DNA of 64,000 nt from Escherichia coli (GTDB lineage Bacteria > Pseudomonadota > Gammaproteobacteria > Enterobacterales > Enterobacteriaceae). The first letter of the stretch is position 1. Every line of letters starts with the position of its first letter. Of this stretch, positions 4,586 through 61,662 are shown one piece after another. Location of the stretch: the NCBI RefSeq assembly GCF_036507355.1, contig NZ_AP027877.1. One strand, 5' to 3'. The notes under the pieces are model-generated. The model was not told the origin of the DNA. It saw only the letters and a list, made by a program, of their open reading frames with translations, and made no database searches. Made by a program: the position numbers and the translations under genes.

Positions 4586-4704
4586 GCCTGATGCGCTGCG
4601 CTTATCAGGCCTACGGGTAATGACTTGTAGGCCGGATAAGACGTTCACGCCGCATCCGGCACTGGTTGCCTGATGCGACGCTTGCGCGTCTTATCAGGCC
4701 TACG
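4586..4704. repeat. REP/BIME cluster (three REP units) in the sdhB-sucA intergenic region
   Basis: Imperfect palindromic units of the type gcctgatgcg...cttatcaggcctac and gtaggccggataag...gccgcatccggca, repeated in alternating orientation. Confidence 0.6.
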
Positions 4705-22050: not shown

Positions 22051-22165
22051 GCCTGATGCGACGCTTAACGCGTCTTATCAGGTCTACGTATTTCCTGCAA
22101 TTTATTGAATTTGCACAAATTTGTAGGCTGGATAAGGCGTTTACGCCGCATCCGGCATCTGGGCT
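22051..22165. repeat. REP/BIME units between convergent dtpD and phr
   Basis: gcctgatgcgacgcttaacgcgtcttatcaggtctac and gtaggctggataaggcgtttacgccgcatccggca palindromic units. Confidence 0.6.
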
Positions 22166-24109: not shown

Positions 24110-24339
24110 TACTGCTCCTGAGATATTAACAGGAGTAAGTGTAGACGTTGGGAAATGATTTTTGTGAAGTTAATCCGCTAGCAGGGCAAGATTACGAAAG
24201 CGCGCTCCCCGCAAGCAACTCATCAAGGTAGTTAATCATGGCTTAACACGATATTACGCCAGAAGTCACCATTTCCAAAACACAGCGCCGCTATAAAGTC
24301 GGCTATGTCAGAGCCCGCCACATAAACAGCAAAACCTAC

Positions 24340-24567
24340 ATGACCACGTACTACTCACGACACCCCTGCCTGAACCTTAAGGGCGACTGGCTGAAAGAGG
24401 CCGGATTTGATACCGGGCGGGGTGTCACGGTGAAGATTTCGGAGGGGTGCCTGACCATTATCGCTGACAGTGACGAGGTGCAGGAGCTGCGGGAGGAACT
24501 TTATCAGGTTAAACAGGTGGTTAAGGGGATACGGAGCGGGATGTTTAGTGTGCTGGACGAGAGTTAA
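24340..24567 (+). CDS. SymE-like small protein (SymE/AbrB-fold type I toxin family); possibly N-terminally truncated
   Basis: 75-aa ORF MTTYYSRHPCLNLKGDWLKEAGFDTGRGVTVKISEGCLTIIADSDEVQELREELYQ... resembles the SymE core (..[33 protein letters not shown]..). The in-frame upstream sequence still looks SymE-like but has no start codon before the stop at 24244. Confidence 0.6.
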   Translation: MTTYYSRHPCLNLKGDWLKEAGFDTGRGVTVKISEGCLTIIADSDEVQELREELYQVKQVVKGIRSGMFSVLDES

Positions 24568-24572
24568 ATAAT

Positions 24573-24612
24573 AAAAAAGCCGGGAAGATGTTATTTTCTT
24601 CCCGGCTTTTTT
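24573..24612. terminator. Bidirectional rho-independent terminator shared by the SymE-like gene (+) and the Rhs immunity gene (-)
   Basis: gccgggaag-(10 nt loop)-cttcccggc stem flanked by an A run on one side and a T run on the other. Confidence 0.75.
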
Positions 24613-24904
24613 AAAGTTTATTTATAGCTTGGTTAATTTCAAATAATAATGAGACAATATCTTTCGCAGAACCATTATAAATGGGGGTATCCCAATCAAA
24701 GTCCTTTATTAAACAAATATAAAAATTCCCATTTAAATTAAAAGATGGTCGCCACCCAACATCCAAAAGATACCCACCAGGATATTCAACTTGGAGCATA
24801 TCTTCCTTAAGTTCATCTCGCTGTTCATTAAGAGGGATGCTTTGTTTCAGGGAGAAGTCATTAAAAATTACATTCCCTTTTTTTCCTAAGAAATCAATGT
24901 TCAT
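24611..24904 (-). CDS. Putative Rhs immunity protein (cognate to the toxin tip immediately upstream)
   Basis: 97-aa AT-rich ORF MNIDFLGKKGNVIFNDFSLKQSIPLNEQRDELKEDMLQVEYPGGYLLDVGW...; its ATG overlaps the toxin stop (ATGA at 24901-24904). Position and composition are typical of rhsI genes; no family assignment was possible. Confidence 0.6.
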   Translation of the reverse strand: MNIDFLGKKGNVIFNDFSLKQSIPLNEQRDELKEDMLQVEYPGGYLLDVGWRPSFNLNGNFYICLIKDFDWDTPIYNGSAKDIVSLLFEINQAINKL

Positions 24905-26151
24905 GGTGTTGTTAGCCTTCGGAATTCATCAAGTGATATGGGATGTCCATGTATTGTCCCACCGCTAAGTTCAACTCGAACCCATTGAGATTCTTTACCC
25001 TCACTGGCCCCAATAACTTTCCCCATATCTTTTACTTTCCATGGTTTACCGTTGGTAACAGGTGTGCCTGTATTAAAAACATCGTATTCCAGCGTTTTAA
25101 TATCAATATCGGGAGAATATTTTGCCGGGCCTGATTTTGTTGATTTAATTATATCCTTCCATGATTTGTTTTTTGGAGGAAAATGTTTGTATCCATGATT
25201 TGTCCATTCAGGTTGCCCACACTTTAAACCTAACGGGTCGATCCACCCCAACGGATTCGGCGCGTATTGGTATAAATTTAATCCACCAAGCAGCCCTATC
25301 GGATCCGTTACCATGAACCGCCCGACATCCGGATCATAGTACCTGTGCAGATTGTAGTGCAGCCCCGTTTCCCTGTCGAGGTACTGTCCCTGGTAGCGCA
25401 GGTTCTGCTCCACCCTGCCGTGGTCCTTCTCCTGTATCGTGTTACCCCAGACCTGATACCCCGTCTCCCACACGATTCTCCCGTCGCTGTCCGTCATCTC
25501 TTCCGGCGCACCGTTCACATCCGTGTGAAAATACAGTATCCGGTTCGGGCCCTCTTTGCCTGCCTTATCCACCCGCGCCAGCGGTTCATAACTCCCCGGG
25601 TCCCTGTAGATGTACAGGCTGCCTGTTCCCTCCGGCCTGCTCTCCTGCGCCAGCCGCATTCCGTCCCATAAAAATTTTGTCCGGTTGTACGGTTTACCGT
25701 CAGGGCTGATGTGCTGTTTTTCCGTCCGCCTCCCCAGTGCATCGTACACATACCGGTATGCCCCCCGCGCTGTCGTCACTTCCACCATCCGGTGTTCCGC
25801 ATCATAACGGTAACTCTGCGTTCCGCTCCGGCCCTCCTTTTCCACCGCACGGCCAAATTCGTCATAACGGTAGTGCACACCACGGTAAGACATCAGCCGG
25901 TTGAACGGCACCACGCTGTTTTCTGCCGTGGCCCTTTCCCCCGCGCGCCTCCCCAGCAGGTTTCCCGCCGCGTCGTACTGCCAGCTCGCCAGATACCCCT
26001 CATCCTCCGAACGGCACGCCGTGATGCGCCCCGTGGGGTCGTAGAAGTAATCCGTTTCCCCCCGCCGGCTGTGCCGCGTCTTCAGCAGTTCATCCTCGCC
26101 ACTGTAGCTGTACTGCCGGTCCGTGAACGTCTCCGGTACCACCCCGCGCAT
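24901..26151 (-). CDS. Rhs protein, C-terminal part: end of YD-repeat core, PxxxxDPxGL motif and a 107-aa toxin tip. Same frame as the upstream fragment, separated from it by an in-frame TAG
   Basis: ORF contains YD repeats (YRYDEFGR, YRYDAEHR, YVYDALGRR) and the hallmark YYDPDVGRFMVTDPIGLLGGLNLYQYAPNPLGWIDPLGL, followed by a low-GC tip KCGQPEWTNHGYKHF...TIHGHPISLDEFRRLTTP. Frame arithmetic: the TAG at 26221-26223 is in frame with this ORF. Confidence 0.85.
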   Translation of the reverse strand: MRGVVPETFTDRQYSYSGEDELLKTRHSRRGETDYFYDPTGRITACRSEDEGYLASWQYDAAGNLLGRRAGERATAENSVVPFNRLMSYRGVHYRYDEFGRAVEKEGRSGTQSYRYDAEHRMVEVTTARGAYRYVYDALGRRTEKQHISPDGKPYNRTKFLWDGMRLAQESRPEGTGSLYIYRDPGSYEPLARVDKAGKEGPNRILYFHTDVNGAPEEMTDSDGRIVWETGYQVWGNTIQEKDHGRVEQNLRYQGQYLDRETGLHYNLHRYYDPDVGRFMVTDPIGLLGGLNLYQYAPNPLGWIDPLGLKCGQPEWTNHGYKHFPPKNKSWKDIIKSTKSGPAKYSPDIDIKTLEYDVFNTGTPVTNGKPWKVKDMGKVIGASEGKESQWVRVELSGGTIHGHPISLDEFRRLTTP

Positions 26152-26220
26152 CCCGCTGTATGTCTCCCTGCGCTTCAGCCGCCCGCCGGGGTCGTAAAGC
26201 TGCCGCGTGCTCAGTCGCCC

Positions 26221-28380
26221 CTAGCTTCTGAGCACCTCACGGTGCAGGTGGTCGCGCGTGAACTCGCTGATGACCTCCCGGTCCAGATTTATCTGCTGGA
26301 GATGGCCGCTGCCGTAGTACAGATGGCGCTGCGTTCTGCCGTCCGGAAAGGTGGTGGCAGTCCGGTTGCCCAGTTCATCGTACTGGTGGGTCAGGATGCC
26401 CTGCGCCGTCTCCTCGCTCAGCATCCGCCCCAGTCTGTCGTAGCTGAAGCAGATAACTTCCGGCGCGTCAGTTTCGTGCCGCTGGCGGCGGATTTCACCG
26501 CCCCGGTCCCCGGTGAACACCACTTCCGTGACCGCGTTCAGCGCGTTGTAGCGGTACGACTGGCGGCAGCCGTCCGGATTTATCTGCTCCGCCAGACGGT
26601 CCAGCACGTCATGGCGGAACCGGTAGCGTTCTCCGTTCTCGTTCGTGAGCGTGACCAGACGCCCGTAAGCGTCGTACCCGAACGCCGTCCTGCGCCCCAT
26701 CGCGTCCGTCCGGCTGCGCACCCGGCCCTGCCCGTCCCGCTGCCAGCGCGTTATCCTCCCCATCGGGCTGGTGTACTTCACCAGACTGCCCGCCGCGTCT
26801 GACTGGTAATTCACCGTGCGGCCGTCCGCCAGTATCACCTCCGTCAGATGACCGCTGTCGTCATACCCGTAGCGCGTGCTGTGGCTCTCCGCATCCGTCA
26901 TTCTGATAAGCCGCGTGCGTTCGTCGTAGAACCACGCCGTCTGCGAGCCGGAGCAGTCCGTGTGCCGCATGAGCTGCCCGTCTTCATTCCACTGGAGGTG
27001 TTTATTCCCCCCGCGCGCATCCGTTATCTGCACCACCTGGCCGTGGTGGTCATACTGATACCGGGTGTTCTGCTGCAGCGGGTCGGTCACGGCAAGAAGG
27101 TTGCCGCGTTCATCGTACACACAGCGCCAGGTGTTTCCCGCCGCGTCCACCTCCGTTTCCGGCTGGTGCCACACCGGGTGCCACTGTGTCTGCGCCACCC
27201 GCCCCAGCGGGTCGTGCGTCTCCGTGATATGCCCCTGCCGGTCATACACATAGCGCCATTTGCCGCCCTGAGGGTCGGTCATCCCCAGCAACAGTCGTTC
27301 TTCGTCGCTCCAGCGGAATGTCGTCACCTGTCCGGCTTCGTCCTGGTACGCCGTCACCTGATTCTGCGCATCCCACTGGTGATAACGTGTGCGCCCCAGT
27401 CCGTCCGTCACGCACAGCCTGCGCTGCGCCAGGTCCCACGCCAGCCGGTACTGTTCACCGCTGTCCGTGTGGTGCCCCGTCACCCGCCATGCCGCGTCAT
27501 CCGGACCGTCATACCAGCCCCACTGGTAATAATACCCTTCGCCGCCCGGCTGGCGGTGCAGCGTCATGCAGTGGTTTTCGTCGTAAGCAAACTCACGCAG
27601 CAGGTGCCCCGTGCTGTCGTACACGCCGTTCAGGTGGCCGGCCTCGTCATAGCTGTAACGACGCAGCAGTAAAGGTGCAGTCTCAGGGAAATGCTGATAA
27701 ATCTGTGTCACCCGCCGGGGATGCGCCGCCAGTTCGTAATACAGACGGATGCACGGACGCTGCTGTTCGCCGCTGATTTCCACAATGCGGCCCCGGTCGT
27801 CGTAGTACAGATTCAGACAGTTGCTGTTACGGTCGCCCAGCATTTTCAGCCGCTGGCGCTGCGGGTGGTGCGGGTCGCCTTCAAACAACCAGTGGATACC
27901 ATCATCGCTGCTGATAAGCCAGTGCCCCTGCTCACCACGCCTTACCGCCAGCCCTTCACCGGGGCTGTAAAACCCGCCCCCCGGCAGTACGGCTTCCATA
28001 TCCAGGCGTCGCCCCATACCCGACACAAAGGTCATGCAGTTTTCGTCTGCGCCACCCGGCAATACAAATGCCACCTGACACTGGTACACCTGCTCGTTAT
28101 CACGGAGAAACTGGCTCTGTATTTCCAGCCCTTGTTCACCGTCATTAATCCCTACCCGTGTTACCTGAACTGGCGTGTAGTGAAGATCCTTTACCTGTTT
28201 CTCCAGTTTTTTCATTTGCTGTTCAATCTGGGAGGCTAATTCGTCTCCTTCCTGCATCTGGCCCCGACTGATAATGAGTGCAGCGTCGGGATCGCTGAGG
28301 CGCAGCATATTAATAGTGCTGTCCTGAATAATATTCCCGGGAAAAGTTACAACAGTTTCATTGAGATAATACTCCGTCAT
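26221..28380 (-). CDS. Rhs protein, N-terminal part: DUF1795-like N-terminal domain plus YD-repeat core, ended by an in-frame amber codon (probable pseudogene or disrupted gene)
   Basis: 719-aa ORF. Core shows classic Rhs repeats (YQYDHHGQVV, YGYDDSGHLTEV, FGYDAYGRLV) and ends ...FTRDHLHREVLRS*, where intact Rhs proteins continue ...TRDRLHRETLRSFG.... Confidence 0.85.
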   Translation of the reverse strand: MTEYYLNETVVTFPGNIIQDSTINMLRLSDPDAALIISRGQMQEGDELASQIEQQMKKLEKQVKDLHYTPVQVTRVGINDGEQGLEIQSQFLRDNEQVYQCQVAFVLPGGADENCMTFVSGMGRRLDMEAVLPGGGFYSPGEGLAVRRGEQGHWLISSDDGIHWLFEGDPHHPQRQRLKMLGDRNSNCLNLYYDDRGRIVEISGEQQRPCIRLYYELAAHPRRVTQIYQHFPETAPLLLRRYSYDEAGHLNGVYDSTGHLLREFAYDENHCMTLHRQPGGEGYYYQWGWYDGPDDAAWRVTGHHTDSGEQYRLAWDLAQRRLCVTDGLGRTRYHQWDAQNQVTAYQDEAGQVTTFRWSDEERLLLGMTDPQGGKWRYVYDRQGHITETHDPLGRVAQTQWHPVWHQPETEVDAAGNTWRCVYDERGNLLAVTDPLQQNTRYQYDHHGQVVQITDARGGNKHLQWNEDGQLMRHTDCSGSQTAWFYDERTRLIRMTDAESHSTRYGYDDSGHLTEVILADGRTVNYQSDAAGSLVKYTSPMGRITRWQRDGQGRVRSRTDAMGRRTAFGYDAYGRLVTLTNENGERYRFRHDVLDRLAEQINPDGCRQSYRYNALNAVTEVVFTGDRGGEIRRQRHETDAPEVICFSYDRLGRMLSEETAQGILTHQYDELGNRTATTFPDGRTQRHLYYGSGHLQQINLDREVISEFTRDHLHREVLRS

Positions 28381-29163
28381 AATGATATGAGTCCTTTTTA
28401 ATTAATAAATTATTTAATGATGGTTTTTGTTTATTTTTAGTCATGAAAATGATACCCATCACTGCTTTACAGCACACTTTATCTTTCCAGCCATAATCAC
28501 TAATAATATTAAGCAATTACCAATATTTACACCGACCAGAGCGGATACATAGTTATGTATTTAACAATCCCAATATATTCACTATGCAAATAAAACCACT
28601 AGTAACAGACACGCTACCGCCTCCATATAAAAATGGACACCTTATAAAATTGTATCTTGCATAGAAAAAGCTGAAATATCGGATGCGTTTTAATTATCCA
28701 CTATAAGTCTATAAGCTTTTTATTAACAACAAAACATCTTATTGGATTAGATATGTTAACAATTAATTATTCTTAATATATCAATAAAGTATATATTACT
28801 CTCTTTACTATCTGCTTTTCTTGCGGTAGCGATACTAATAGCAAAATTCGGAATTTATTTAGATGCTGGAATTAGAAAAAGGGATGGCGGCCTTCTCACC
28901 TTACCCTGAAGTCTCAGGAAAGTGTGTAAGGAAGTATGCAACCTAACTGGAGATTTCTGATGATCTAGCCGCTTAGAGCGACAATGAAGGTGACCGCATC
29001 CTGGGTAGCCCTATGAAAGGATACTATTGAAACTTGATGCTAAAACAGTGATGAAATGAATAACACGATGGAAACGTCTTCCATGTTAATTATCATGGAA
29101 GACGTTGATGTAAAATACCTAAACCAGCCCCCTGATACGAGGCTGGCTTAAGCGCGCAGGCAA

Positions 29164-45862: not shown

Positions 45863-47527
45863 TTACTCGCCTACTTTCGCCCAGGTATCACGCAGCCCAA
45901 CGGTGCGGTTAAATACCGGTTTTTCCGCCGTGGAATGGCGACTGTCGAGGCAGAAGTAACCTTCACGCTCAAACTGGAATGCTTTACCCGCTACCGCATC
46001 TTTCAGCGACGGTTCAGCAAAGCCCTGTTTGATCACCAGCGATTCAGGGTTAATCACCGACAGGAAATCATCCGCAGCACCTGGGTTCGGCACGCTGAAC
46101 AGACGGTCATACAAACGGATTTCAACCGGCAGCGCATGTGCCGCGCTCACCCAGTGAATAACGCCTTTCACTTTACGACCATCAGCCGGATCTTTGCTTA
46201 AGGTGTCGGCGTCATAAGTACAGAAGATGGTGGTGATATTACCTTCGGCATCTTTCTCGACGCGTTCTGCCTTAATCACATAAGCATTACGCAGACGCAC
46301 TTCTTTACCGAGCACCAGACGTTTGTACTGCTTGTTAGCTTCTTCGCGGAAATCGGCGCGATCGATCCAAATCTCACCGCTAAACGGCACCTGACGGCTC
46401 CCCATTTCCGGTTTGTTCGGATGGTTCGGCATGGTAACCATTTCGCCTTCGCCCTGATAGTTTTCGATAACCAGTTTCACCGGATCGATAACCGCCATTG
46501 CGCGCGGGGCGTTTTCGTTGAGATCTTCACGGATGCAGGATTCCAGCGACGCCATCTCAATGGTGTTGTCCTGCTTGGTCACGCCGATGCGTTTGCAGAA
46601 CTCACGAATAGAAGCCGCAGTGTAACCACGACGACGCAGACCGGAAATGGTCGGCATACGCGGGTCATCCCAGCCTTCAACGTGCTTATCGGTCACCAGC
46701 AGGTTCAGCTTACGCTTGGACATCACAGTGTATTCCAGATTCAGGCGCGAGAATTCGTATTGGCGCGGGTGAACAGGAATGGTGATGTTGTCCAGTACCC
46801 AGTCGTACAGACGACGGTTATCCTGGAACTCAAGCGTACACAGAGAGTGCGTAATACCTTCCAGGGCATCGCTGATGCAGTGGGTGAAGTCGTACATCGG
46901 GTAGATGCACCACTTGTTGCCAGTCTGGTGGTGTTCAGCAAATTTAATGCGGTACAGCACCGGATCGCGCATCACGATAAACGGTGAAGCCATGTCGATT
47001 TTCGCACGCAGGCAGGCTTTACCTTCTTCAAAACCGCCGGTACGCATTTTCTCGAACAGCGCCAGGTTCTCTTCAACGCTACGGTCGCGGTACGGGCTGT
47101 TTTTACCCGGCTGCGTCAGGGTGCCGCGGTATTCGCGGATCTGTTCCGGCGTCAGTTCATCAACGTACGCCAGGCCTTTATTGATCAGTTCGATCGCATA
47201 GGCGTGGAGCTGATCAAAATAATCGGAGGAGTAACGGACGTTACCAGACCAGTGAAAACCTAACCACTCTACGTCGTTTTTGATCGAATCGACATACTCG
47301 ATATCTTCTTTTACCGGGTTAGTGTCGTCGAAACGCAGGTTGCACTGGCCTTTATAGTCCTGGGCGATCCCGAAGTTCAGGCAGATAGATTTCGCATGGC
47401 CAATATGCAGATAGCCATTCGGCTCCGGCGGGAAACGGGTGTGTACTGTGGTGTGCTTACCACTGGCCAGATCTTCATCGATGATCTGACGGATAAAGTT
47501 AGTCGGGCGGGCTTCTGCCTCACTCAT
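45863..47527 (-). CDS. glnS: Glutaminyl-tRNA synthetase
   Basis: 554-aa [51 protein letters not shown]... with HIGH and VMSKR class I motifs. Confidence 0.97.
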
Positions 47528-52081: not shown

Positions 52082-53302
52082 ATGACACCAGGCGGACAAG
52101 CTCAGATAGGTAATGTTGATCTCGTAAAACAGCTTAACAGCGCGGCGGTTTATCGCCTGATTGACCAGTACGGGCCAATCTCGCGGATTCAGATTGCCGA
52201 GCAAAGCCAGCTTGCCCCCGCCAGCGTAACCAAAATTACGCGTCAGCTTATCGAACGCGGGCTGATCAAAGAAGTTGATCAGCAGGCCTCCACCGGGGGC
52301 CGCCGCGCTATCTCTATCGTCACCGAAACCCGCAATTTCCACGCAATCGGCGTACGGCTTGGTCGTCACGACGCCACCATCACCCTGTTTGATCTCAGCA
52401 GCAAAGTGCTGGCAGAAGAACATTACCCGCTGCCGGAACGTACCCAGCAGACGCTGGAACATGCCCTGCTGAATGCCATTGCTCAGTTTATTGATAGCTA
52501 CCAGCGCAAACTGCGCGAGCTGATCGCCATTTCCGTTATCCTGCCAGGGCTTGTTGACCCGGACAGCGGCAAAATTCATTACATGCCGCATATTCAGGTA
52601 GAAAACTGGGGGCTGGTAGAAGCACTGGAAGAGCGTTTTAAAGTGACCTGTTTCGTTGGTCACGATATCCGTAGTCTGGCGCTGGCGGAGCACTACTTCG
52701 GTGCAAGTCAGGATTGCGAAGACTCCATTCTGGTGCGTGTCCATCGCGGAACCGGGGCCGGGATTATCTCTAACGGGCGCATTTTTATTGGCCGCAACGG
52801 TAACGTCGGTGAAATTGGCCATATTCAGGTCGAACCGCTGGGTGAACGCTGCCACTGCGGCAACTTTGGCTGCCTGGAAACTATCGCTGCCAACGCCGCT
52901 ATTGAACAACGGGTGTTGAATCTGTTAAAGCAGGGCTACCAGAGCCGCGTGCCGCTGGACGACTGCACCATCAAAACTATCTGCAAAGCCGCGAACAAAG
53001 GCGATAGCCTGGCCTCGGAAGTGATTGAGTATGTCGGTCGTCATCTGGGCAAAACCATCGCCATTGCCATCAACCTGTTTAACCCGCAAAAAATTGTTAT
53101 TGCCGGAGAAATCACGGAAGCCGATAAAGTGCTGCTCCCTGCTATTGAAAGCTGCATTAATACTCAGGCGCTGAAGGCGTTTCGTACTAATCTGCCGGTG
53201 GTACGTTCTGAGCTGGATCACCGCTCGGCAATCGGCGCTTTTGCGCTGGTAAAACGCGCCATGCTCAACGGTATTTTGCTCCAGCATTTGCTGGAAAATT
53301 AA
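52082..53302 (+). CDS. nagC: ROK-family transcriptional repressor of the nag regulon
   Basis: 406-aa ORF MTPGGQAQIGNVDLVKQLNSAAVYRLIDQYGPISRIQIAEQSQLAPASVTKITRQLIERGLI... with N-terminal HTH and ROK sugar-kinase-like domain. Confidence 0.96.
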   Translation: MTPGGQAQIGNVDLVKQLNSAAVYRLIDQYGPISRIQIAEQSQLAPASVTKITRQLIERGLIKEVDQQASTGGRRAISIVTETRNFHAIGVRLGRHDATITLFDLSSKVLAEEHYPLPERTQQTLEHALLNAIAQFIDSYQRKLRELIAISVILPGLVDPDSGKIHYMPHIQVENWGLVEALEERFKVTCFVGHDIRSLALAEHYFGASQDCEDSILVRVHRGTGAGIISNGRIFIGRNGNVGEIGHIQVEPLGERCHCGNFGCLETIAANAAIEQRVLNLLKQGYQSRVPLDDCTIKTICKAANKGDSLASEVIEYVGRHLGKTIAIAINLFNPQKIVIAGEITEADKVLLPAIESCINTQALKAFRTNLPVVRSELDHRSAIGAFALVKRAMLNGILLQHLLEN

Positions 53303-53349
53303 TGTGCTTTTATAGTGGCGCTTATTGTTGTCAATATTCTGGGTAGTCC

Positions 53350-54102
53350 ATGACCATTAAAAATGTAATTTGCGATATCGACGGCGTGCTGATGCACGAT
53401 AACGTCGCCGTACCGGGTGCAGCGGAATTTTTGCACGGGATTATGGATAAAGGCCTGCCGCTGGTGTTGCTGACCAACTATCCTTCGCAGACCGGGCAAG
53501 ATCTGGCGAACCGCTTTGCCACTGCCGGTGTCGATGTACCTGACAGCGTGTTTTATACCTCTGCGATGGCGACCGCCGATTTCCTGCGTCGCCAGGAAGG
53601 CAAGAAAGCGTATGTGGTGGGCGAAGGCGCGCTGATTCATGAGCTGTACAAAGCCGGTTTCACTATTACCGATGTGAACCCTGATTTTGTGATTGTTGGC
53701 GAAACTCGTTCCTACAACTGGGACATGATGCATAAAGCAGCTTATTTCGTCGCTAACGGTGCACGCTTTATCGCCACCAACCCGGACACCCACGGGCGCG
53801 GTTTTTATCCGGCCTGTGGCGCGTTGTGTGCAGGGATTGAGAAAATCTCCGGGCGCAAACCATTCTATGTGGGTAAGCCGAGTCCGTGGATCATCCGCGC
53901 GGCATTAAACAAAATGCAGGCCCACTCGGAAGAAACGGTGATTGTCGGCGATAACCTGCGTACCGACATTCTGGCGGGCTTCCAGGCGGGTCTGGAGACG
54001 ATTCTGGTGCTTTCTGGTGTTTCATCGCTCGACGATATCGACAGTATGCCTTTCCGCCCAAGCTGGATTTACCCGTCAGTCGCTGAAATCGACGTTATCT
54101 GA
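53350..54102 (+). CDS. nagD: UMP phosphatase (HAD superfamily)
   Basis: 250-aa ORF MTIKNVICDIDGVLMHDNVAVPGAAEFLHGIMDKGLPLVLLTNYPSQTG... with DxDG HAD motif. Confidence 0.95.
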   Translation: MTIKNVICDIDGVLMHDNVAVPGAAEFLHGIMDKGLPLVLLTNYPSQTGQDLANRFATAGVDVPDSVFYTSAMATADFLRRQEGKKAYVVGEGALIHELYKAGFTITDVNPDFVIVGETRSYNWDMMHKAAYFVANGARFIATNPDTHGRGFYPACGALCAGIEKISGRKPFYVGKPSPWIIRAALNKMQAHSEETVIVGDNLRTDILAGFQAGLETILVLSGVSSLDDIDSMPFRPSWIYPSVAEIDVI

Positions 54103-54107
54103 ATAGC

Positions 54108-54140
54108 AACCACGTCTCAGGACGTGGTTTCTTATTTTTA
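54108..54140 (+). terminator. Rho-independent terminator downstream of nagD
   Basis: aaccacgtc-tcag-gacgtggtt stem followed by a T-rich run. Confidence 0.7.
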
Positions 54141-54358
54141 CCCATCATTAAAATCATTCCATTCAATAAAACCCGCCAAAAATTATCGATCCATCAATAA
54201 ATACATCACCGCACCCTCCCCTTTTTCACAAATCAGCAATCACCATTACGTTTTTTATTTTTTCACCGCCAAATCGCTTGCGCACAGTGCTGCTTTGCGG
54301 CATTTTTTTAAACAAGCAAACACAACAAGCAACAAATACCAGGTTAACGGAGAAGGTT

Positions 54359-56023
54359 ATGTGTTCAATTTTTGGCGTATTCGATATCAAAACAGACGCA
54401 GTTGAGCTGCGGAAGAAAGCACTCGAGCTGTCACGCCTGATGCGTCATCGTGGCCCGGACTGGTCCGGTATTTATGCCAGCGATAACGCCATTCTCGCCC
54501 ACGAACGTCTGTCAATTGTTGACGTTAACGCGGGGGCGCAACCTCTCTATAACCAACAAAAAACTCATGTACTGGCGGTAAACGGTGAAATCTACAACCA
54601 CCAGGCATTGCGCGCTGAATATGGCGATCGTTATCAGTTCCAGACAGGGTCTGACTGTGAAGTGATCCTCGCGCTGTATCAGGAAAAAGGGCCGGAATTT
54701 CTCGACGACTTGCAGGGCATGTTTGCCTTTGCCCTGTACGACAGCGAAAAAGATGCCTACCTGATTGGTCGCGACCATCTGGGGATCATCCCACTGTATA
54801 TGGGCTATGACGAACACGGTCAGCTGTATGTGGCCTCAGAAATGAAAGCGCTGGTGCCAGTTTGCCGCACGATTAAAGAGTTCCCGGCGGGGAGCTATTT
54901 GTGGAGCCAGGACGGCGAAATCCGTTCTTACTATCATCGCGACTGGTTCGACTACGATGCGGTGAAAGATAACGTGACCGACAAAAACGAGCTGCGTCAG
55001 GCTCTGGAAGATTCCGTTAAAAGCCATCTGATGTCTGATGTGCCTTACGGTGTGCTGCTTTCTGGTGGTCTGGATTCCTCAATTATTTCCGCTATCACCA
55101 AGAAATACGCAGCCCGTCGCGTGGAAGATCAGGAACGCTCTGAAGCCTGGTGGCCGCAGTTACACTCCTTTGCTGTAGGCCTGCCGGGTTCACCGGATCT
55201 GAAAGCAGCCCAGGAAGTGGCAAACCATCTGGGCACGGTGCATCACGAAATTCACTTCACTGTACAGGAAGGTCTGGATGCCATCCGCGACGTGATTTAC
55301 CACATCGAAACCTATGATGTGACCACTATTCGCGCTTCAACACCGATGTATTTAATGTCGCGTAAGATCAAAGCGATGGGCATTAAAATGGTGCTGTCCG
55401 GTGAAGGTTCTGATGAAGTGTTTGGCGGTTATCTTTACTTCCACAAAGCGCCGAACGCTAAAGAACTGCATGAAGAGACGGTGCGTAAATTGCTAGCCCT
55501 GCATATGTATGACTGCGCCCGTGCCAACAAAGCGATGTCCGCCTGGGGCGTGGAAGCACGCGTTCCGTTCCTCGATAAGAAATTCCTTGATGTGGCGATG
55601 CGTATTAACCCACAGGATAAAATGTGCGGTAACGGCAAGATGGAAAAACACATCCTGCGTGAATGTTTTGAGTCGTACCTGCCTGCAAGTGTTGCCTGGC
55701 GGCAGAAAGAGCAGTTCTCCGATGGCGTCGGTTACAGTTGGATCGACACCCTGAAAGAAGTGGCGGCGCAGCAGGTTTCTGATCAGCAACTGGAAACTGC
55801 CCGCTTCCGCTTCCCGTACAACACGCCGACCTCAAAAGAAGCGTATCTGTACCGGGAGATCTTTGAAGAACTGTTCCCGCTTCCAAGCGCCGCTGAGTGC
55901 GTGCCGGGCGGTCCTTCCGTCGCGTGTTCTTCCGCTAAAGCGATCGAATGGGATGAAGCGTTCAAGAAAATGGACGATCCGTCTGGTCGTGCGGTTGGTG
56001 TTCACCAGTCGCCGTATAAGTAA
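54359..56023 (+). CDS. asnB: Asparagine synthetase B (glutamine-hydrolysing)
   Basis: Start placed at MCSIFGVFDIKTDAVELRKKALELSRLMRHRGPDWSGIYASD (554 aa; the catalytic Cys follows the initiator Met) inside track ORF 54278..56023. Confidence 0.96.
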   Translation: MCSIFGVFDIKTDAVELRKKALELSRLMRHRGPDWSGIYASDNAILAHERLSIVDVNAGAQPLYNQQKTHVLAVNGEIYNHQALRAEYGDRYQFQTGSDCEVILALYQEKGPEFLDDLQGMFAFALYDSEKDAYLIGRDHLGIIPLYMGYDEHGQLYVASEMKALVPVCRTIKEFPAGSYLWSQDGEIRSYYHRDWFDYDAVKDNVTDKNELRQALEDSVKSHLMSDVPYGVLLSGGLDSSIISAITKKYAARRVEDQERSEAWWPQLHSFAVGLPGSPDLKAAQEVANHLGTVHHEIHFTVQEGLDAIRDVIYHIETYDVTTIRASTPMYLMSRKIKAMGIKMVLSGEGSDEVFGGYLYFHKAPNAKELHEETVRKLLALHMYDCARANKAMSAWGVEARVPFLDKKFLDVAMRINPQDKMCGNGKMEKHILRECFESYLPASVAWRQKEQFSDGVGYSWIDTLKEVAAQQVSDQQLETARFRFPYNTPTSKEAYLYREIFEELFPLPSAAECVPGGPSVACSSAKAIEWDEAFKKMDDPSGRAVGVHQSPYK

Positions 56024-56032
56024 GAAATGCGA

Positions 56033-56066
56033 AACAGCCCCGGTGAAATCCGGGGCTGTTTCAGTT
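56033..56066 (+). terminator. Rho-independent terminator downstream of asnB
   Basis: aacagccccgg-tgaaat-ccggggctgtt stem with a weak T tract. Confidence 0.65.
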
Positions 56067-56333
56067 ATTGAGGTGCTTGTTGATTCTGATATGCAGTAAG
56101 GAAATGTTCCGGGTTTGCCACATCACTGTTTGACAACTCATCACTGTAGGCCAGTATTTCATAGATTAATTTCCCACCACTATTGTTTAATTCCGAATTT
56201 CATCCTGTATGACAAAAGAATGGCTGTAGGGTGGGAAAAAACACAAAGTAAACAATAATTGACGAATATAGCGCCACGCTGTTCGCAACCTAACCAAACA
56301 GTCACTTTCGAGCAATTTTCCTTGAAAAAGAGG

Positions 56334-56362
56334 TTGACGCTGCAAGGCTCTATACGCATAAT
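56334..56362 (+). promoter_or_regulatory. Promoter of the metT tRNA operon (sigma70 type, GC-rich discriminator)
   Basis: TTGACG, 17-bp spacer, CATAAT, followed by gcgccccgc; typical stable-RNA promoter architecture about 40 bp upstream of the first tRNA. Confidence 0.55.
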
Positions 56363-56402
56363 GCGCCCCGCAACGCCGATAAGGTATCGCGAAAAAAAAG
56401 AT

Positions 56403-56479
56403 GGCTACGTAGCTCAGTTGGTTAGAGCACATCACTCATAATGATGGGGTCACAGGTTCGAATCCCGTCGTAGCCACCA
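56403..56479 (+). tRNA. metT: tRNA-Met (elongator, anticodon CAU)
   Basis: ggctacgtagctcagttggttagagcacatcactcataatgatggggtcacaggttcgaatcccgtcgtagccacca; cloverleaf with CAT anticodon and encoded CCA. Confidence 0.95.
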
Positions 56480-56487
56480 TCTTTTTT

Positions 56488-56572
56488 GCGGGAGTGGCGA
56501 AATTGGTAGACGCACCAGATTTAGGTTCTGGCGCCGCAAGGTGTGCGAGTTCAAGTCTCGCCTCCCGCACCA
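56488..56572 (+). tRNA. leuW: tRNA-Leu (anticodon UAG, long variable arm)
   Basis: gcgggagtggcgaaattggtagacgcaccagatttaggttctggcgccgcaaggtgtgcgagttcaagtctcgcctcccgcacca. Confidence 0.93.
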
Positions 56573-56595
56573 TTCACCAGAAAGCGTTGTACGGA

Positions 56596-56670
56596 TGGGG
56601 TATCGCCAAGCGGTAAGGCACCGGTTTTTGATACCGGCATTCCCTGGTTCGAATCCAGGTACCCCAGCCA
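56596..56670 (+). tRNA. glnU: tRNA-Gln (anticodon UUG)
   Basis: tggggtatcgccaagcggtaaggcaccggtttttgataccggcattccctggttcgaatccaggtaccccagcca; anticodon loop ttTTGat. Confidence 0.93.
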
Positions 56671-56704
56671 TCTTCTTCGAGTAAGCGGTTCACCGCCCGG
56701 TTAT

Positions 56705-56779
56705 TGGGGTATCGCCAAGCGGTAAGGCACCGGTTTTTGATACCGGCATTCCCTGGTTCGAATCCAGGTACCCCAGCCA
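56705..56779 (+). tRNA. glnW: tRNA-Gln (anticodon UUG), second copy
   Basis: Identical to the preceding tRNA-Gln(UUG) sequence. Confidence 0.93.
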
Positions 56780-56794
56780 TCGAAGAAACAATCT

Positions 56795-56871
56795 GGCTAC
56801 GTAGCTCAGTTGGTTAGAGCACATCACTCATAATGATGGGGTCACAGGTTCGAATCCCGTCGTAGCCACCA
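56795..56871 (+). tRNA. metU: tRNA-Met (elongator), second copy
   Basis: Identical to the metT sequence. Confidence 0.93.
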
Positions 56872-56919
56872 AATTCTGAATGTGTCGAATATGTTCGGCA
56901 AATTCAAAAACCAATTTGT

Positions 56920-56994
56920 TGGGGTATCGCCAAGCGGTAAGGCACCGGATTCTGATTCCGGCATTCCGAGGTTCGAATCCTCGTACCCCAGCCA
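56920..56994 (+). tRNA. glnV: tRNA-Gln (anticodon CUG; wild-type, not the supE amber-suppressor allele)
   Basis: tggggtatcgccaagcggtaaggcaccggattctgattccggcattccgaggttcgaatcctcgtaccccagcca; anticodon loop ttCTGat. Confidence 0.93.
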
Positions 56995-57031
56995 ATTTAT
57001 TCAAGACGCTTACCTTGTAAGTGCACCCAGT

Positions 57032-57106
57032 TGGGGTATCGCCAAGCGGTAAGGCACCGGATTCTGATTCCGGCATTCCGAGGTTCGAATCCTCGTACCC
57101 CAGCCA
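57032..57106 (+). tRNA. glnX: tRNA-Gln (anticodon CUG), second copy
   Basis: Identical to the glnV sequence. Confidence 0.93.
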
Positions 57107-57113
57107 CATTAAA

Positions 57114-57146
57114 AAAGCTCGCTTCGGCGAGCTTTTTGCTTTTCTG
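57114..57146 (+). terminator. Rho-independent terminator of the tRNA operon
   Basis: aagctcgc-ttcg-gcgagctt stem followed by tttttgcttttct. Confidence 0.75.
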
Positions 57147-57189
57147 CGTTCATTCAATGTCGAATGCGATGTTGACACGTCTTATCCTT

Positions 57190-57250
57190 CAATGTCGGAT
57201 GCGACGCTGCCGCGTCTTATCCGACCTACGGTTGGCACGCATCCGGCAAT
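57190..57250. repeat. REP-like palindromic units between the tRNA operon and ubiF
   Basis: atgtcggatgcgacgctgccgcgtcttatccgacctac and ggcacgcatccggca. Confidence 0.5.
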
Positions 57251-57259
57251 GTTGTAAGG

Positions 57260-58435
57260 CTACAACCCTAACGCATATTTCAGCGCCTGACGTTTCAACA
57301 CGCCAGCACGCTCCGCCGCCATCAAACCAAGATTACGCACAAAACGCAGCGGCGGCAGATTATTACTGAATCCGGCATAAAACAGATCCATACCGCTCTG
57401 CATAATGAAGTTATCCGCCATGCGCCGCATCTGGTAGCGCTTGAGGACAGGATAACTGGCCCACGCTTCGCCGTAGCTGCGGGCATTCACCAGAACATCA
57501 ATCAGGGCATCGACATCACGATAACCAAGATTCACCCCCTGCCCCGCCAGCGGATGGATGGTATGCGCGGCATCGCCCACCAGCGCAAGCCCTGGCTGCA
57601 CATACTGCAACGCATGGCGACGCGTCAGCGGAAACGCACCAGCGGCAAGCGGTGTAACGTAACCCAGACGCGACGGGAAATGCTTCGCGATTTCCGCCTG
57701 TAACTGCGCCATGTTCATATTCTGCAACTGGCGAATACGCGCCGGAGAGTCATACCACACCAGCGATGCCCAGTTATCAAACAACGGCAGAAACGCACGC
57801 GGTCCGTCCGGAGTAAATTGCTGCCAGGTGCTATCGCCGGGATCGTTCTCGCACTGGACGCTAATCAACATGCACGACTGCGCATACTGCCATGCATGAA
57901 CGCCAATTCCCGCCATCTGCCGCACCTGCGAATTTGCGCCGTCGGCACCAATCACCAGCTTCGCGCGAATCACTTCACCGCCTTTCAGCTCCAGCTCCTG
58001 AAGATCATTATCTCGATGTAATGCAATCAGCGAGGTTGGCACACGTAACGTTACTTTCGGATGCGCTTCCAGCGCCTGCCACAATGCCTGTTGCAGGACA
58101 GTGTTTTCTACCATATAGCCAAGCAACGGCAACTTTAATTCGGCTGCGTCAAATACCACATGCGCCGTTTCCCACTCCCACGTTTCCAGTCTGCGGTAAG
58201 GATGGCAACGCATAGCCTGTACTGCATCCCAGACCCCTAACCCTTTAAGCAATGATACCGAAGCCGCGCTGATCGCCGAGATCCGCACGTCCGGTTGGCT
58301 ATCAGCGACAAACGGTGCAGGTTCTGCGTGCTCGATCACCGTTACCGTAAATCCGTGCTGTGCCAGCCCCAGCGCCAGTGCGCCGCCGACCATTCCTCCG
58401 CCGACAATGGCAATTTCCGTTGGTTGATTTGTCAT
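57260..58435 (-). CDS. ubiF: 3-demethoxyubiquinol 3-hydroxylase (FAD-dependent monooxygenase)
   Basis: Start placed at MTNQPTEIAIVGGGMVGGALALGLAQHGF (391 aa; the track ORF begins two codons earlier at MTMTNQ); Rossmann GxGxxG motif. Confidence 0.93.
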   Translation of the reverse strand: MTNQPTEIAIVGGGMVGGALALGLAQHGFTVTVIEHAEPAPFVADSQPDVRISAISAASVSLLKGLGVWDAVQAMRCHPYRRLETWEWETAHVVFDAAELKLPLLGYMVENTVLQQALWQALEAHPKVTLRVPTSLIALHRDNDLQELELKGGEVIRAKLVIGADGANSQVRQMAGIGVHAWQYAQSCMLISVQCENDPGDSTWQQFTPDGPRAFLPLFDNWASLVWYDSPARIRQLQNMNMAQLQAEIAKHFPSRLGYVTPLAAGAFPLTRRHALQYVQPGLALVGDAAHTIHPLAGQGVNLGYRDVDALIDVLVNARSYGEAWASYPVLKRYQMRRMADNFIMQSGMDLFYAGFSNNLPPLRFVRNLGLMAAERAGVLKRQALKYALGL

Positions 58436-58580
58436 GGTCAATCATCCTGTTAGCAATATGCTTTAAGTTTACAGGATTTTTACCCCCAAGGGCTGATAAC
58501 GCTCATACTGGTCACAACGGCAGCAAAGCATTACACTATGCGCCCTGCATTCCTGGCTACTATTTCGCAAGAGCAAGTCG

Positions 58581-60005
58581 ATGACCAAAAAACTCCATAT
58601 TAAAACCTGGGGCTGTCAGATGAACGAGTACGATTCATCGAAGATGGCCGATCTGCTGGATGCCACCCACGGCTATCAACTGACCGACGTGGCGGAAGAA
58701 GCGGATGTGCTGCTGCTGAACACCTGCTCAATCCGCGAGAAGGCTCAGGAAAAAGTCTTCCATCAGTTGGGTCGCTGGAAACTGTTAAAAGAGAAGAATC
58801 CAGACCTGATTATCGGCGTCGGTGGCTGCGTGGCATCGCAAGAAGGCGAGCACATTCGCCAGCGCGCCCACTATGTCGATATTATTTTTGGGCCGCAAAC
58901 GCTGCACCGTCTGCCGGAGATGATCAACTCCGTGCGCGGCGACCGCAGCCCGGTTGTAGATATCAGCTTCCCGGAAATCGAGAAGTTTGACCGTCTACCG
59001 GAACCGCGCGCCGAAGGGCCGACCGCGTTTGTCTCCATCATGGAAGGCTGCAATAAATATTGCACCTACTGCGTGGTGCCTTACACCCGTGGTGAAGAGG
59101 TAAGCCGTCCGTCTGACGATATTCTGTTTGAGATTGCCCAGCTTGCGGCTCAGGGCGTGCGTGAAGTCAACCTGCTCGGTCAGAACGTGAACGCCTGGCG
59201 TGGTGAAAACTACGACGGCACCACCGGATCGTTTGCCGATCTGTTGCGTCTGGTTGCTGCGATCGACGGGATCGATCGTATTCGCTTTACCACCAGCCAT
59301 CCGATCGAATTCACCGACGATATCATCGAAGTGTATCGCGACACGCCGGAGCTGGTGAGCTTCCTGCACCTGCCGGTACAGAGCGGTTCCGATCGTATTC
59401 TGAACCTGATGGGACGTACCCATACGGCGCTGGAGTACAAAGCGATCATCCGTAAACTGCGTGCGGCGCGTCCGGATATTCAGATCAGTTCTGACTTCAT
59501 CGTTGGCTTCCCTGGCGAAACCACCGAAGACTTCGAGAAAACGATGAAGCTGATTGCCGACGTCAATTTCGACATGAGCTACAGCTTTATCTTCTCTGCA
59601 CGTCCAGGAACGCCTGCCGCTGATATGGTTGATGATGTTCCGGAAGAAGAGAAGAAGCAGCGTCTGTATATTCTGCAAGAACGTATCAATCAGCAAGCGA
59701 TGGCATGGAGCCGTCGGATGCTCGGCACCACCCAGCGTATTCTGGTAGAAGGGACTTCACGTAAGAGCATCATGGAGCTTTCCGGGCGTACCGAAAATAA
59801 TCGTGTGGTCAACTTCGAGGGCACACCGGATATGATCGGTAAATTCGTCGATGTAGAAATTACCGACGTCTACCCGAACTCTCTGCGCGGTAAAGTGGTG
59901 CGAACTGAAGATGAAATGGGTCTGCGCGTGGCAGAAACACCGGAATCGGTGATTGCCCGTACTCGCAAAGAAAACGACCTTGGTGTGGGTTATTATCAGC
60001 CGTAA
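58581..60005 (+). CDS. miaB: tRNA-2-methylthio-N6-dimethylallyladenosine synthase (radical SAM methylthiotransferase)
   Basis: 474-aa [61 protein letters not shown]... with CxxxCxxC radical-SAM motif (CNKYCTYC). Confidence 0.96.
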
Positions 60006-60157
60006 TTCTCAGGCCCGCCGTTCCGGTGGGCCTTGTTTTTTCTCTCTTTATCCCCATCTTTATCGCAATGCTTGCGCCTTTTTCCTGTGGCGTGAATAAT
60101 TTCCTTATAGGCCGGTGAATGTTCAGCTTCCGGCGGCATACAGATAAGAGGAACGGT

Positions 60158-61198
60158 TTGAACATAGACACTCGCGAAATCACCCTGGAGCCAGCAGACA
60201 ATGCGCGTCTGTTGAGCCTGTGCGGCCCGTTTGATGACAACATCAAGCAGCTCGAACGCCGTCTCGGCATCGAGATCAATCGCCGCGATAACCACTTTAA
60301 ACTGACCGGCCGTCCGATTTGCGTCACCGCTGCGGCAGACATTCTGCGTAGCCTGTATGTCGATACTGCCCCGATGCGCGGTCAGATTCAGGATATCGAA
60401 CCGGAACAGATCCACCTTGCGATTAAAGAAGCGCGGGTATTGGAGCAAAGTGCGGAGAGCGTGCCGGAGTACGGCAAAGCGGTCAATATCAAAACCAAAC
60501 GCGGCGTAATTAAGCCGCGCACGCCAAACCAGGCGCAGTACATCGCCAATATTCTCGACCATGACATTACCTTCGGCGTTGGCCCGGCGGGTACGGGTAA
60601 AACCTACCTGGCAGTGGCTGCAGCAGTTGATGCCCTGGAGCGTCAGGAAATTCGCCGTATTCTGCTGACTCGTCCGGCGGTCGAAGCCGGTGAGAAACTG
60701 GGCTTCCTGCCTGGCGATTTAAGCCAGAAAGTAGCCCCGTATCTGCGCCCACTGTACGACGCGCTGTTTGAAATGCTGGGCTTTGAGAAAGTCGAGAAAC
60801 TGATTGAGCGCAACGTTATTGAAGTCGCGCCGCTGGCCTATATGCGTGGTCGTACGCTGAATGACGCCTTTATCATTCTCGATGAGAGCCAGAACACCAC
60901 CATCGAACAGATGAAGATGTTCCTGACCCGTATCGGTTTTAACTCAAAAGCGGTTATCACCGGCGACGTCACACAGATCGACCTGCCGCGTAATACTAAA
61001 TCAGGCTTACGTCATGCCATCGACGTGCTGGCCGATGTCGAAGAGATCAGCTTTAACTTCTTCCACAGCGAAGACGTGGTTCGTCACCCGGTGGTGGCGC
61101 GTATCGTTAACGCCTATGAAGCCTGGGAAGAAGCCGAACAAAAACGTAAAGCGGCGCTGGCGGCAGAACGCAAGCGCGAAGAACAGGAACAAAAATGA
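60158..61198 (+). CDS. ybeZ: PhoH-like ATPase
   Basis: Track ORF 60119..61198 (359 aa from ATG). Start chosen at the in-frame TTG at 60158 giving (M)[23 protein letters not shown]... of 346 aa, my recollection of the annotated protein; the ATG at 60119 is the alternative. Walker A GPAGTGKT present. Confidence 0.88.
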
Positions 61199-61662
61199 GT
61201 CAGGTGATCCTCGATTTACAACTGGCATGTGAAGATAACTCCGGATTGCCGGAAGAGAGCCAGTTTCAAACATGGCTGAATGCGGTGATCCCGCAGTTTC
61301 AGGAAGAGTCGGAAGTGACGATTCGCGTGGTCGATACCGCCGAAAGCCACAGTCTCAATCTGACCTATCGCGGTAAGGATAAGCCAACCAACGTGCTCTC
61401 CTTCCCGTTTGAAGTGCCGCCCGGCATGGAGATGTCGCTACTGGGCGATCTGGTTATCTGCCGTCAGGTGGTTGAGAAGGAAGCACAGGAGCAAGGCAAA
61501 CCACTGGAGGCGCACTGGGCGCATATGGTGGTGCACGGCAGTCTGCATTTGTTAGGTTACGATCACATCGAAGATGACGAAGCAGAAGAAATGGAAGCCC
61601 TCGAAACAGAGATTATGCTTGCTCTGGGCTATGAGGATCCGTACATTGCCGAGAAAGAATAA
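61195..61662 (+). CDS. ybeY: Endoribonuclease YbeY (rRNA maturation factor)
   Basis: 155-aa [58 protein letters not shown]... with HxxxH..H zinc motif ([11 protein letters not shown]); start overlaps the ybeZ stop. Confidence 0.95.

Follow-up and report, generated by a model that had tools for sequence, protein, structure and literature searches.

The window analysed here, a 64-kb stretch of Escherichia coli DNA, carries exactly seven tRNA genes on its + strand, at 56403-57106 (ARAGORN). ARAGORN, Rfam and the RefSeq annotation of an identical sequence give the same gene order on this one strand: Met(CAU)-Leu(UAG)-Gln(UUG)-Gln(UUG)-Met(CAU)-Gln(CUG)-Gln(CUG). A scan of the whole 64-kb window returned no tRNA genes beyond these seven. 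All seven match Rfam RF00005 at 57.6-71.1 bits, with a gathering score of 29 and E-values of 8e-10 or better. These scores are far beyond chance and are independent of ARAGORN. An earlier note on this DNA, written from the sequence alone, had described a seven-tRNA array with the same coordinates and anticodons, and both ARAGORN and Rfam RF00005 bear it out. With near certainty, the locus is the metT (supB-E) tRNA operon of E. coli in its intact, wild-type, seven-gene form, situated between asnB and the convergent ubiF. The genes and the elements that accompany them are the following.

56334-56362, + strand: putative sigma-70-type promoter, with -35 TTGACG (56334-56339), a 17-nt spacer and -10 CATAAT (56357-56362), matching 10/12 in a consensus scan
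56363-56402, + strand: GC-rich discriminator (GCGCCCCGC) and then a 5′ leader ending in AAAAAAAAGAT directly before metT
56403-56479, + strand: metT, read as elongator tRNA-Met (CAU; CAT in DNA), 77 nt including the encoded CCA; ARAGORN, Rfam (71.1 bits), RefSeq (tRNA-Met)
56488-56572, + strand: leuW, tRNA-Leu (UAG; TAG in DNA), 85 nt, with a long variable arm; ARAGORN, Rfam (57.6 bits), RefSeq
56596-56670, + strand: glnU, tRNA-Gln1 (UUG; TTG in DNA), 75 nt; ARAGORN, Rfam, RefSeq
56705-56779, + strand: glnW, tRNA-Gln1 (UUG; TTG in DNA), 75 nt; ARAGORN, Rfam, RefSeq
56795-56871, + strand: metU, read as elongator tRNA-Met (CAU; CAT in DNA), 77 nt; ARAGORN, Rfam, RefSeq
56920-56994, + strand: glnV, tRNA-Gln2 (CUG; CTG in DNA), 75 nt, anticodon at 56952-56954; ARAGORN, Rfam, RefSeq
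57032-57106, + strand: glnX, tRNA-Gln2 (CUG; CTG in DNA), 75 nt, anticodon at 57064-57066; ARAGORN, Rfam, RefSeq
57112-57145, + strand: predicted rho-independent terminator (hairpin-plus-U at 57112-57137), with an 11-bp perfect stem (AAAAAGCTCGC / GCGAGCTTTTT), a TTCG loop and a T-rich tail; terminator scan and inverted repeat
57150-57251, no strand assigned: REP-like palindromic repeats that separate the terminator from the convergent ubiF and lie beyond the transcription unit proper; repeat search

The genes include three identical pairs, as had been claimed for them. A base-for-base comparison shows that metT and metU, glnU and glnW, and glnV and glnX are each 100% identical, and CCA ends are encoded in all seven genes. 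Both CAU genes have a paired G1-C72 and the anticodon stem CAUCA/UGAUG, and they lack the 1-72 mismatch and the three consecutive G-C anticodon-stem pairs that are typical of initiator tRNA. RefSeq labels both of them tRNA-Met in the identical stretch, and their sequence equals that of the copies in K-12 (C600). Judged by these sequence features, metT and metU are genes for elongator tRNA-Met, and for neither initiator tRNA-fMet nor tRNA-Ile2. Between glnU and glnV there are seven differing positions, made up of the wobble base and three fully compensated stem pairs (at gene positions 30/38, U-A to A-U; 49/63, C-G to G-C; and 50/62, U-A to A-U). The Gln1 and Gln2 isoacceptors have the same predicted cloverleaf.

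The surroundings of the array are those expected of the metT operon. The 1011-nt stretch at 56250-57260 is 100% identical to E. coli NZ_CP062811.1, where RefSeq places nagC, nagD and asnB before the tRNA-Met, Leu, Gln, Gln, Met, Gln and Gln genes, and ubiF (- strand), miaB, ybeZ and ybeY after them. In the window, asnB lies upstream on the same strand, while ubiF is downstream and convergent, from 57260. Of 5426 complete E. coli genomes, 5424 contain matching sequence, and 5280 cover at least 80% of the 1011-nt stretch. The locus in NZ_CP062811.1 aligns to window positions 52250-61260 at 98.6% identity. Collinearity of the entire window with that record was rejected, since the two are only 97.6-99.1% identical outside the operon stretch and the RHS region does not align. 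The window therefore belongs to a different E. coli strain. The stretch at about 24166-29160 of the window, which has no alignment to NZ_CP062811.1, corresponds to an RHS core-protein and immunity-gene region in that record, indicating that the RHS tip is variable between strains.

Several other features of the window were seen in passing. Rfam gives gathering-level matches to isrA (112.9 bits, 24309-24437, - strand), ES036/CssrF (70.5 bits, 22080-22122, - strand) and naRNA4/CssrE (82.3 bits, 4630-4700, + strand). By alignment to a related annotated record, the isrA match is apparently at the edge of the RHS/ISAs1 region. Alignment to a related record also places glnS, the gene for glutaminyl-tRNA synthetase, at about 45863-47527 on the - strand, some 9 kb upstream of the four tRNA-Gln genes.

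Comparison with K-12 strain C600 shows five differences over the 1237-nt asnB-ubiF intergenic region, one of which is the supE44 base. The two loci share gene order, flanks (asnB and ubiF), promoter, leader and terminator. The metT-leuW spacer of the window is one T shorter (8 nt vs 9), two base substitutions and one extra A fall outside the genes, and the window has G, not A, at the supE44 site. These differences are trivial strain polymorphisms only.

The supE44 site deserves separate mention, as the earlier note had stated that glnV and glnX carry no amber suppressor of this type. In supE44, the third anticodon base of glnX is changed from G to A, converting CUG to CUA (PMC11148124 and PMC4444293, both citing Singaravelan et al. 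2010). In C600, used as a positive control, the seventh gene has the anticodon CTA, and the change aligns to window position 57066. The window has the wild-type G at this position in glnX and at the equivalent position 56954 in glnV, so that both genes read CTG and the statement holds. The supE44 (glnX44) allele of laboratory K-12 thus concerns the same gene and the same base, anticodon base 3 of the seventh tRNA, with G in the window and A in C600. Suppressors of the supB type read ochre codons and have a UUA anticodon in a tRNA-Gln1 gene (glnU or glnW). Both of these genes read TTG in the window, with no ochre-suppressor (UUA) form. At the metT operon the window carries neither a supE-type (CUA) nor a supB-type (UUA) suppressor, which has no bearing on the rest of the genome.

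We also considered whether the array exists in plasmid-borne, mobile copies, and rejected this candidate. A PLSDB search returned 35 records, and the near-full matches are mostly Enterobacterales records of 0.28-5.4 Mb, several of them chromosome-sized. Four opened records with usable annotation carry chromosomal genes, namely asnB and ubiF in three and kdpE in the fourth. CP043024.1 is a 28.8-kb 'plasmid' that has kdpE and a noisy array at 93% identity, with indels inside tRNA genes. The search, with its 35 records and the four annotated ones opened, yielded no evidence of a genuinely mobile array copy. Many array-bearing PLSDB records, including 'plasmids' of 4-5 Mb, appear to be mislabelled chromosomes or chromosome fragments. 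Such mislabelled records supplied the arrays of other genera, which have the following composition.

Klebsiella and Enterobacter: same seven-gene order as E. coli; flanks asnB and ubiF
Yersinia: Met-Leu-GlnUUG-GlnUUG-Met-GlnCUG; flanks asnB and ubiF
Proteus: Met-Leu-GlnUUG-GlnUUG-Met-GlnUUG-Leu, with no GlnCUG; flanks not annotated
Aeromonas: a different mix of Met, GlnUUG and Leu; flanks not annotated

The Enterobacterales orthologues (Klebsiella, Enterobacter, Yersinia and Proteus) have in common with E. coli a Met-Leu-GlnUUG-GlnUUG-Met core and an invariant promoter core, and share the asnB-ubiF position wherever it is annotated. Their 3′ part varies, with one GlnCUG in Yersinia and a GlnUUG plus a second Leu in Proteus, and their spacers differ from those of E. 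coli in length and sequence.

This conservation bears directly on the promoter. The consensus scan found the TTGACG-17-CATAAT site and no second + strand promoter-like site in 56000-57400. One match against a shuffle mean of 1.6 is not significant alone, and the weight of the promoter call consequently lies with its invariance across genera. Neither GTTGACG nor ATACGCATAAT varies among E. coli, Klebsiella, Enterobacter, Yersinia and Proteus. Indeed, the block GTTGACG ... ATACGCATAATGCGCCCCGCAACGCCGA is invariant across those five genera while the surrounding sequence varies, and GCGCCCCGCAACGCCGA is likewise invariant in five Enterobacterales. This pattern suggests that the site acts as the promoter of the operon, with transcription probably starting near 56369-56371. 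GC-rich discriminators are a classical mark of stringently controlled stable-RNA promoters, and the discriminator found here points to a metT promoter of that type. Further, the leader agrees with experimental data from an RNase P mutant, in which species VI, measuring about 125 nt, consists of metT whose 5′ end is still unprocessed (PMC2241853), a size that fits a leader of roughly 30-45 nt.

After glnX the terminator scan finds the single + strand terminator of the unit, whose hairpin has a predicted folding energy of -17.9 kcal/mol. Upstream, a hairpin at 56030-56063 lies just past the asnB stop codon and probably insulates the tRNA unit from asnB. The stretch at 57150-57251 contains a 35-nt direct repeat at 83% identity and two inverted repeats, which are probably REP elements of the kind familiar from E. 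coli intergenic regions.

One promoter-like site, one terminator and the full-length transcript seen on northern blots of K-12 (PMC2241853) together uphold the description of the array as a single seven-tRNA transcription unit. Sequence and conservation suggest that one strong promoter of the stable-RNA type would drive a transcript of about 770 nt, which is predicted from the sequence to end at a hairpin-plus-U terminator. Following published experiments, RNase E would act first, taking off the terminator and helping to separate the last three tRNAs, metU-glnV-glnX. RNase P would then cut each mature 5′ end, and exonucleases would shorten the 3′ ends as far as the encoded CCA. In K-12, northern blots with nine probes displayed the full-length seven-tRNA transcript and defined intermediates, and RNase E was found to remove the terminator before RNase P processing; a retained terminator inhibits RNase P (PMC2241853). 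In K-12, according to published work, the operon contains every gene that the cell has for elongator tRNA-Met, for tRNA-Leu(UAG) and for the two tRNA-Gln isoacceptors. Because the sole genes for these four tRNA species reside in the operon, the transcription unit is essential in K-12, and its deletion is possible only when a plasmid complements the loss (PMC11480407). By analogy with the K-12 work, from which they are carried over, co-transcription, RNase E/RNase P processing and essentiality should apply to the strain of the window too.

A possible structural feature of the precursor involves the end of the leader. Every base of the leader segment AAAAAAGAT (56394-56402) is complementary to a stretch made up of A76 and all 8 nt of the metT-leuW spacer (ATCTTTTTT, 56479-56487). 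There is no covariation between AAAAAAGAT and ATCTTTTTT, both sides being conserved from E. coli to Proteus except in the lengths of their A- and T-runs. Their pairing might lengthen the acceptor stem of metT in the precursor.

The six spacers of the array measure, in order, 8, 23, 34, 15, 48 and 37 nt. The earlier note had seen internally duplicated units here, with spacers that are themselves repeated. For each pair of spacers, the local alignment score was compared with those of 300 shuffles, and all 15 of the 15 alignments fell inside the shuffle distribution (smallest p about 0.14), revealing no similarity between spacers. Further, in a repeat search with a 7-nt seed, the gene repeats reach only 2-9 nt into their flanks. 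The claim of repeated spacers, which span lengths of 8-48 nt, is therefore not sustained. The idea of duplicated units survives in part: the gene content does resemble Met-(Leu)-Gln-Gln followed by Met-Gln-Gln, but only the genes are repeated and the spacers are not part of any unit.

These data also bear on the age of the duplications. A recent segmental duplication of gene-plus-spacer units would make the spacers repeats as well. It would account for the two-unit gene order, for the 6 of 9 bases common to the 9 nt before metT and metU, and for the same 2 nt found upstream of glnV and glnX. Nevertheless, we regard such an event as very improbable. Not one of the 15 spacer comparisons leaves the shuffle null, and the spacers differ in length. 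Between E. coli and Klebsiella or Enterobacter, orthologous spacers share 45-100% identity, whereas the paralogous spacers of E. coli are unrelated to one another. In the K-12 study, a distinct oligonucleotide for each spacer was used as a specific northern probe, and these individual-spacer probes worked as unique (PMC2241853), in agreement with the unique spacers found here. Since orthologous spacers are alike and paralogous ones unrelated, the duplications appear to be old, predating the Enterobacteriaceae, and only the genes have stayed identical. The comparative pattern thus suggests an origin in old tandem gene duplications, after which the spacers would have diverged beyond recognition, while purifying selection, combined with either gene conversion or unequal crossing-over, would have kept the paralogues identical.

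How this identity is maintained can be read from the other genera. Compared with E. coli, the Met copies differ by 1, 4, 5 and 7 nt in Klebsiella, Yersinia, Proteus and Aeromonas, respectively, yet they are identical within each genome. The GlnUUG genes of Yersinia are 8 nt from those of E. coli and 0 from each other. Across the six genomes, paralogues that are identical within a genome and different between genomes suggest concerted evolution, in which gene conversion or copy turnover adds to the effect of purifying selection. It is unlikely that purifying selection alone, with neither gene conversion nor copy turnover, keeps the pairs identical, even though tRNA sequences are very strongly constrained and Klebsiella has the same GlnUUG, GlnCUG and Leu sequences as E. 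coli. Where tRNAs have changed, as in the Met genes and the GlnUUG genes of Yersinia, all copies in a genome carry the same changes, which makes independent parallel fixation unlikely. Moreover, E. coli assemblies often lose or gain whole gene-plus-spacer units of 109 nt or 112 nt and include a glnW/glnX-type recombinant, which indicates that recombination between copies occurs. In Enterobacter hormaechei CP103578.1, the second GlnCUG (1232-1306 of the retrieved locus) does not match the first at 10 aligned positions, whereas the pairs of E. coli and Klebsiella are identical. This mismatch may represent either real divergence or a shifted indel from sequencing error.

Sequenced E. coli assemblies contain from 4 to 10 genes at this locus, and roughly 4-5% of complete assemblies depart from the seven-gene form. 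Contracted arrays, shorter than the canonical 705 nt, occur in 183 of the 5424 matching genomes, as counted with a 300-nt query of the two flanks, which were joined only when they lay no more than 650 nt apart. Queries of the form spacer-gene-spacer detected about 64 expanded arrays: 29 genomes have three or more GlnCUG units in tandem, and 35 have three or more GlnUUG units. Examples of both kinds are given below.

E24377A: six genes, with one GlnCUG
ECCTRSRTH03: five genes, each Gln isoacceptor being represented once
N18-04097: four genes, Met-Leu-GlnUUG-GlnCUG, with metU removed
K-12 GM4792: five GlnCUG genes, ten tRNAs in all
Strain M8: three GlnUUG genes

The four-gene array of N18-04097 implies recombination between a Gln1 and a Gln2 gene. 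Assembly error must account for some of the copy-number variants. In PapRG-04-4 and CP043024.1 there are tRNA genes that contain indels, and the expanded set includes several laboratory-strain assemblies with adjacent accession numbers. The array of the window itself is the standard seven-gene form.

Contracted complete assemblies that retain one of each Gln isoacceptor, or one Met, would make the second copies individually dispensable, and on this ground some of the duplicated copies might be taken for silent or decaying spares and not working genes. We find this scarcely credible. All seven genes score well above the tRNA gathering threshold, the pairs are identical and show no decay, and copy identity is kept across genera. 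Further, all copies are included in one transcript, from which processing intermediates have been seen experimentally (PMC2241853).

The most extreme case is the chromosome of CEA224S (NZ_CP166080.1), from which the entire array is missing. The gap, equivalent to window positions 56402-57106, starts one base ahead of metT and ends with the final base of glnX. The junction falls at 3152/3153 of the retrieved locus, leaving promoter, leader and terminator intact, and it is unique among 5426 genomes. No relocated copy of the array was found elsewhere on the chromosome, and the plasmid has no tRNA. The lysT operon of this assembly is intact, and there has thus been no general loss of tRNA arrays. 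This operon, lysT-valT-lysW-valZ-lysYZQ, is the other seven-tRNA operon of E. coli and is likewise a tRNA-only array of repeated identical genes. It encodes different tRNAs at a different locus (cpoB-nadA), and is the nearest analogue of the metT operon in kind only. Because the metT transcription unit is essential in K-12, the CEA224S gap is most likely an artefact of assembly or curation.

We tentatively entertain a broader view, although we consider it rather doubtful. Owing to its identical paralogues, the array may be a recombination-driven, copy-number-variable locus in natural E. coli populations, one that could tune the supply of tRNA-Gln and tRNA-Met if the variation is real, and CEA224S might then be a real genotype with its tRNA genes on unassembled DNA.

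The metT operon is a long-known and fully characterised housekeeping locus, and its presence here is no discovery. The original description is that of Nakajima, Ozeki and Shimura (Cell 1981;23:239), as cited in PMC4041420. The operon has belonged to textbook knowledge since then, and there are studies of its transcription, its processing, its suppressor alleles and its essentiality. The value of the present analysis is a practical one of annotation, in that the window is E. coli with an intact wild-type operon, free of supE44 and supB alleles at this locus. Concerted evolution, the variants of 4-10 genes and the CEA224S gap may help in assessing assembly quality or tRNA gene dosage, and as side results they only extend the known behaviour of tandem tRNA genes. 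A last observation concerns the annotation of suppressor alleles. The supE44 tRNA of C600 (1283-1357 of the retrieved C600 locus) is left unannotated by RefSeq and is called tRNA-Pyl by ARAGORN, a miscalling that is a small annotation trap for alleles of this kind.
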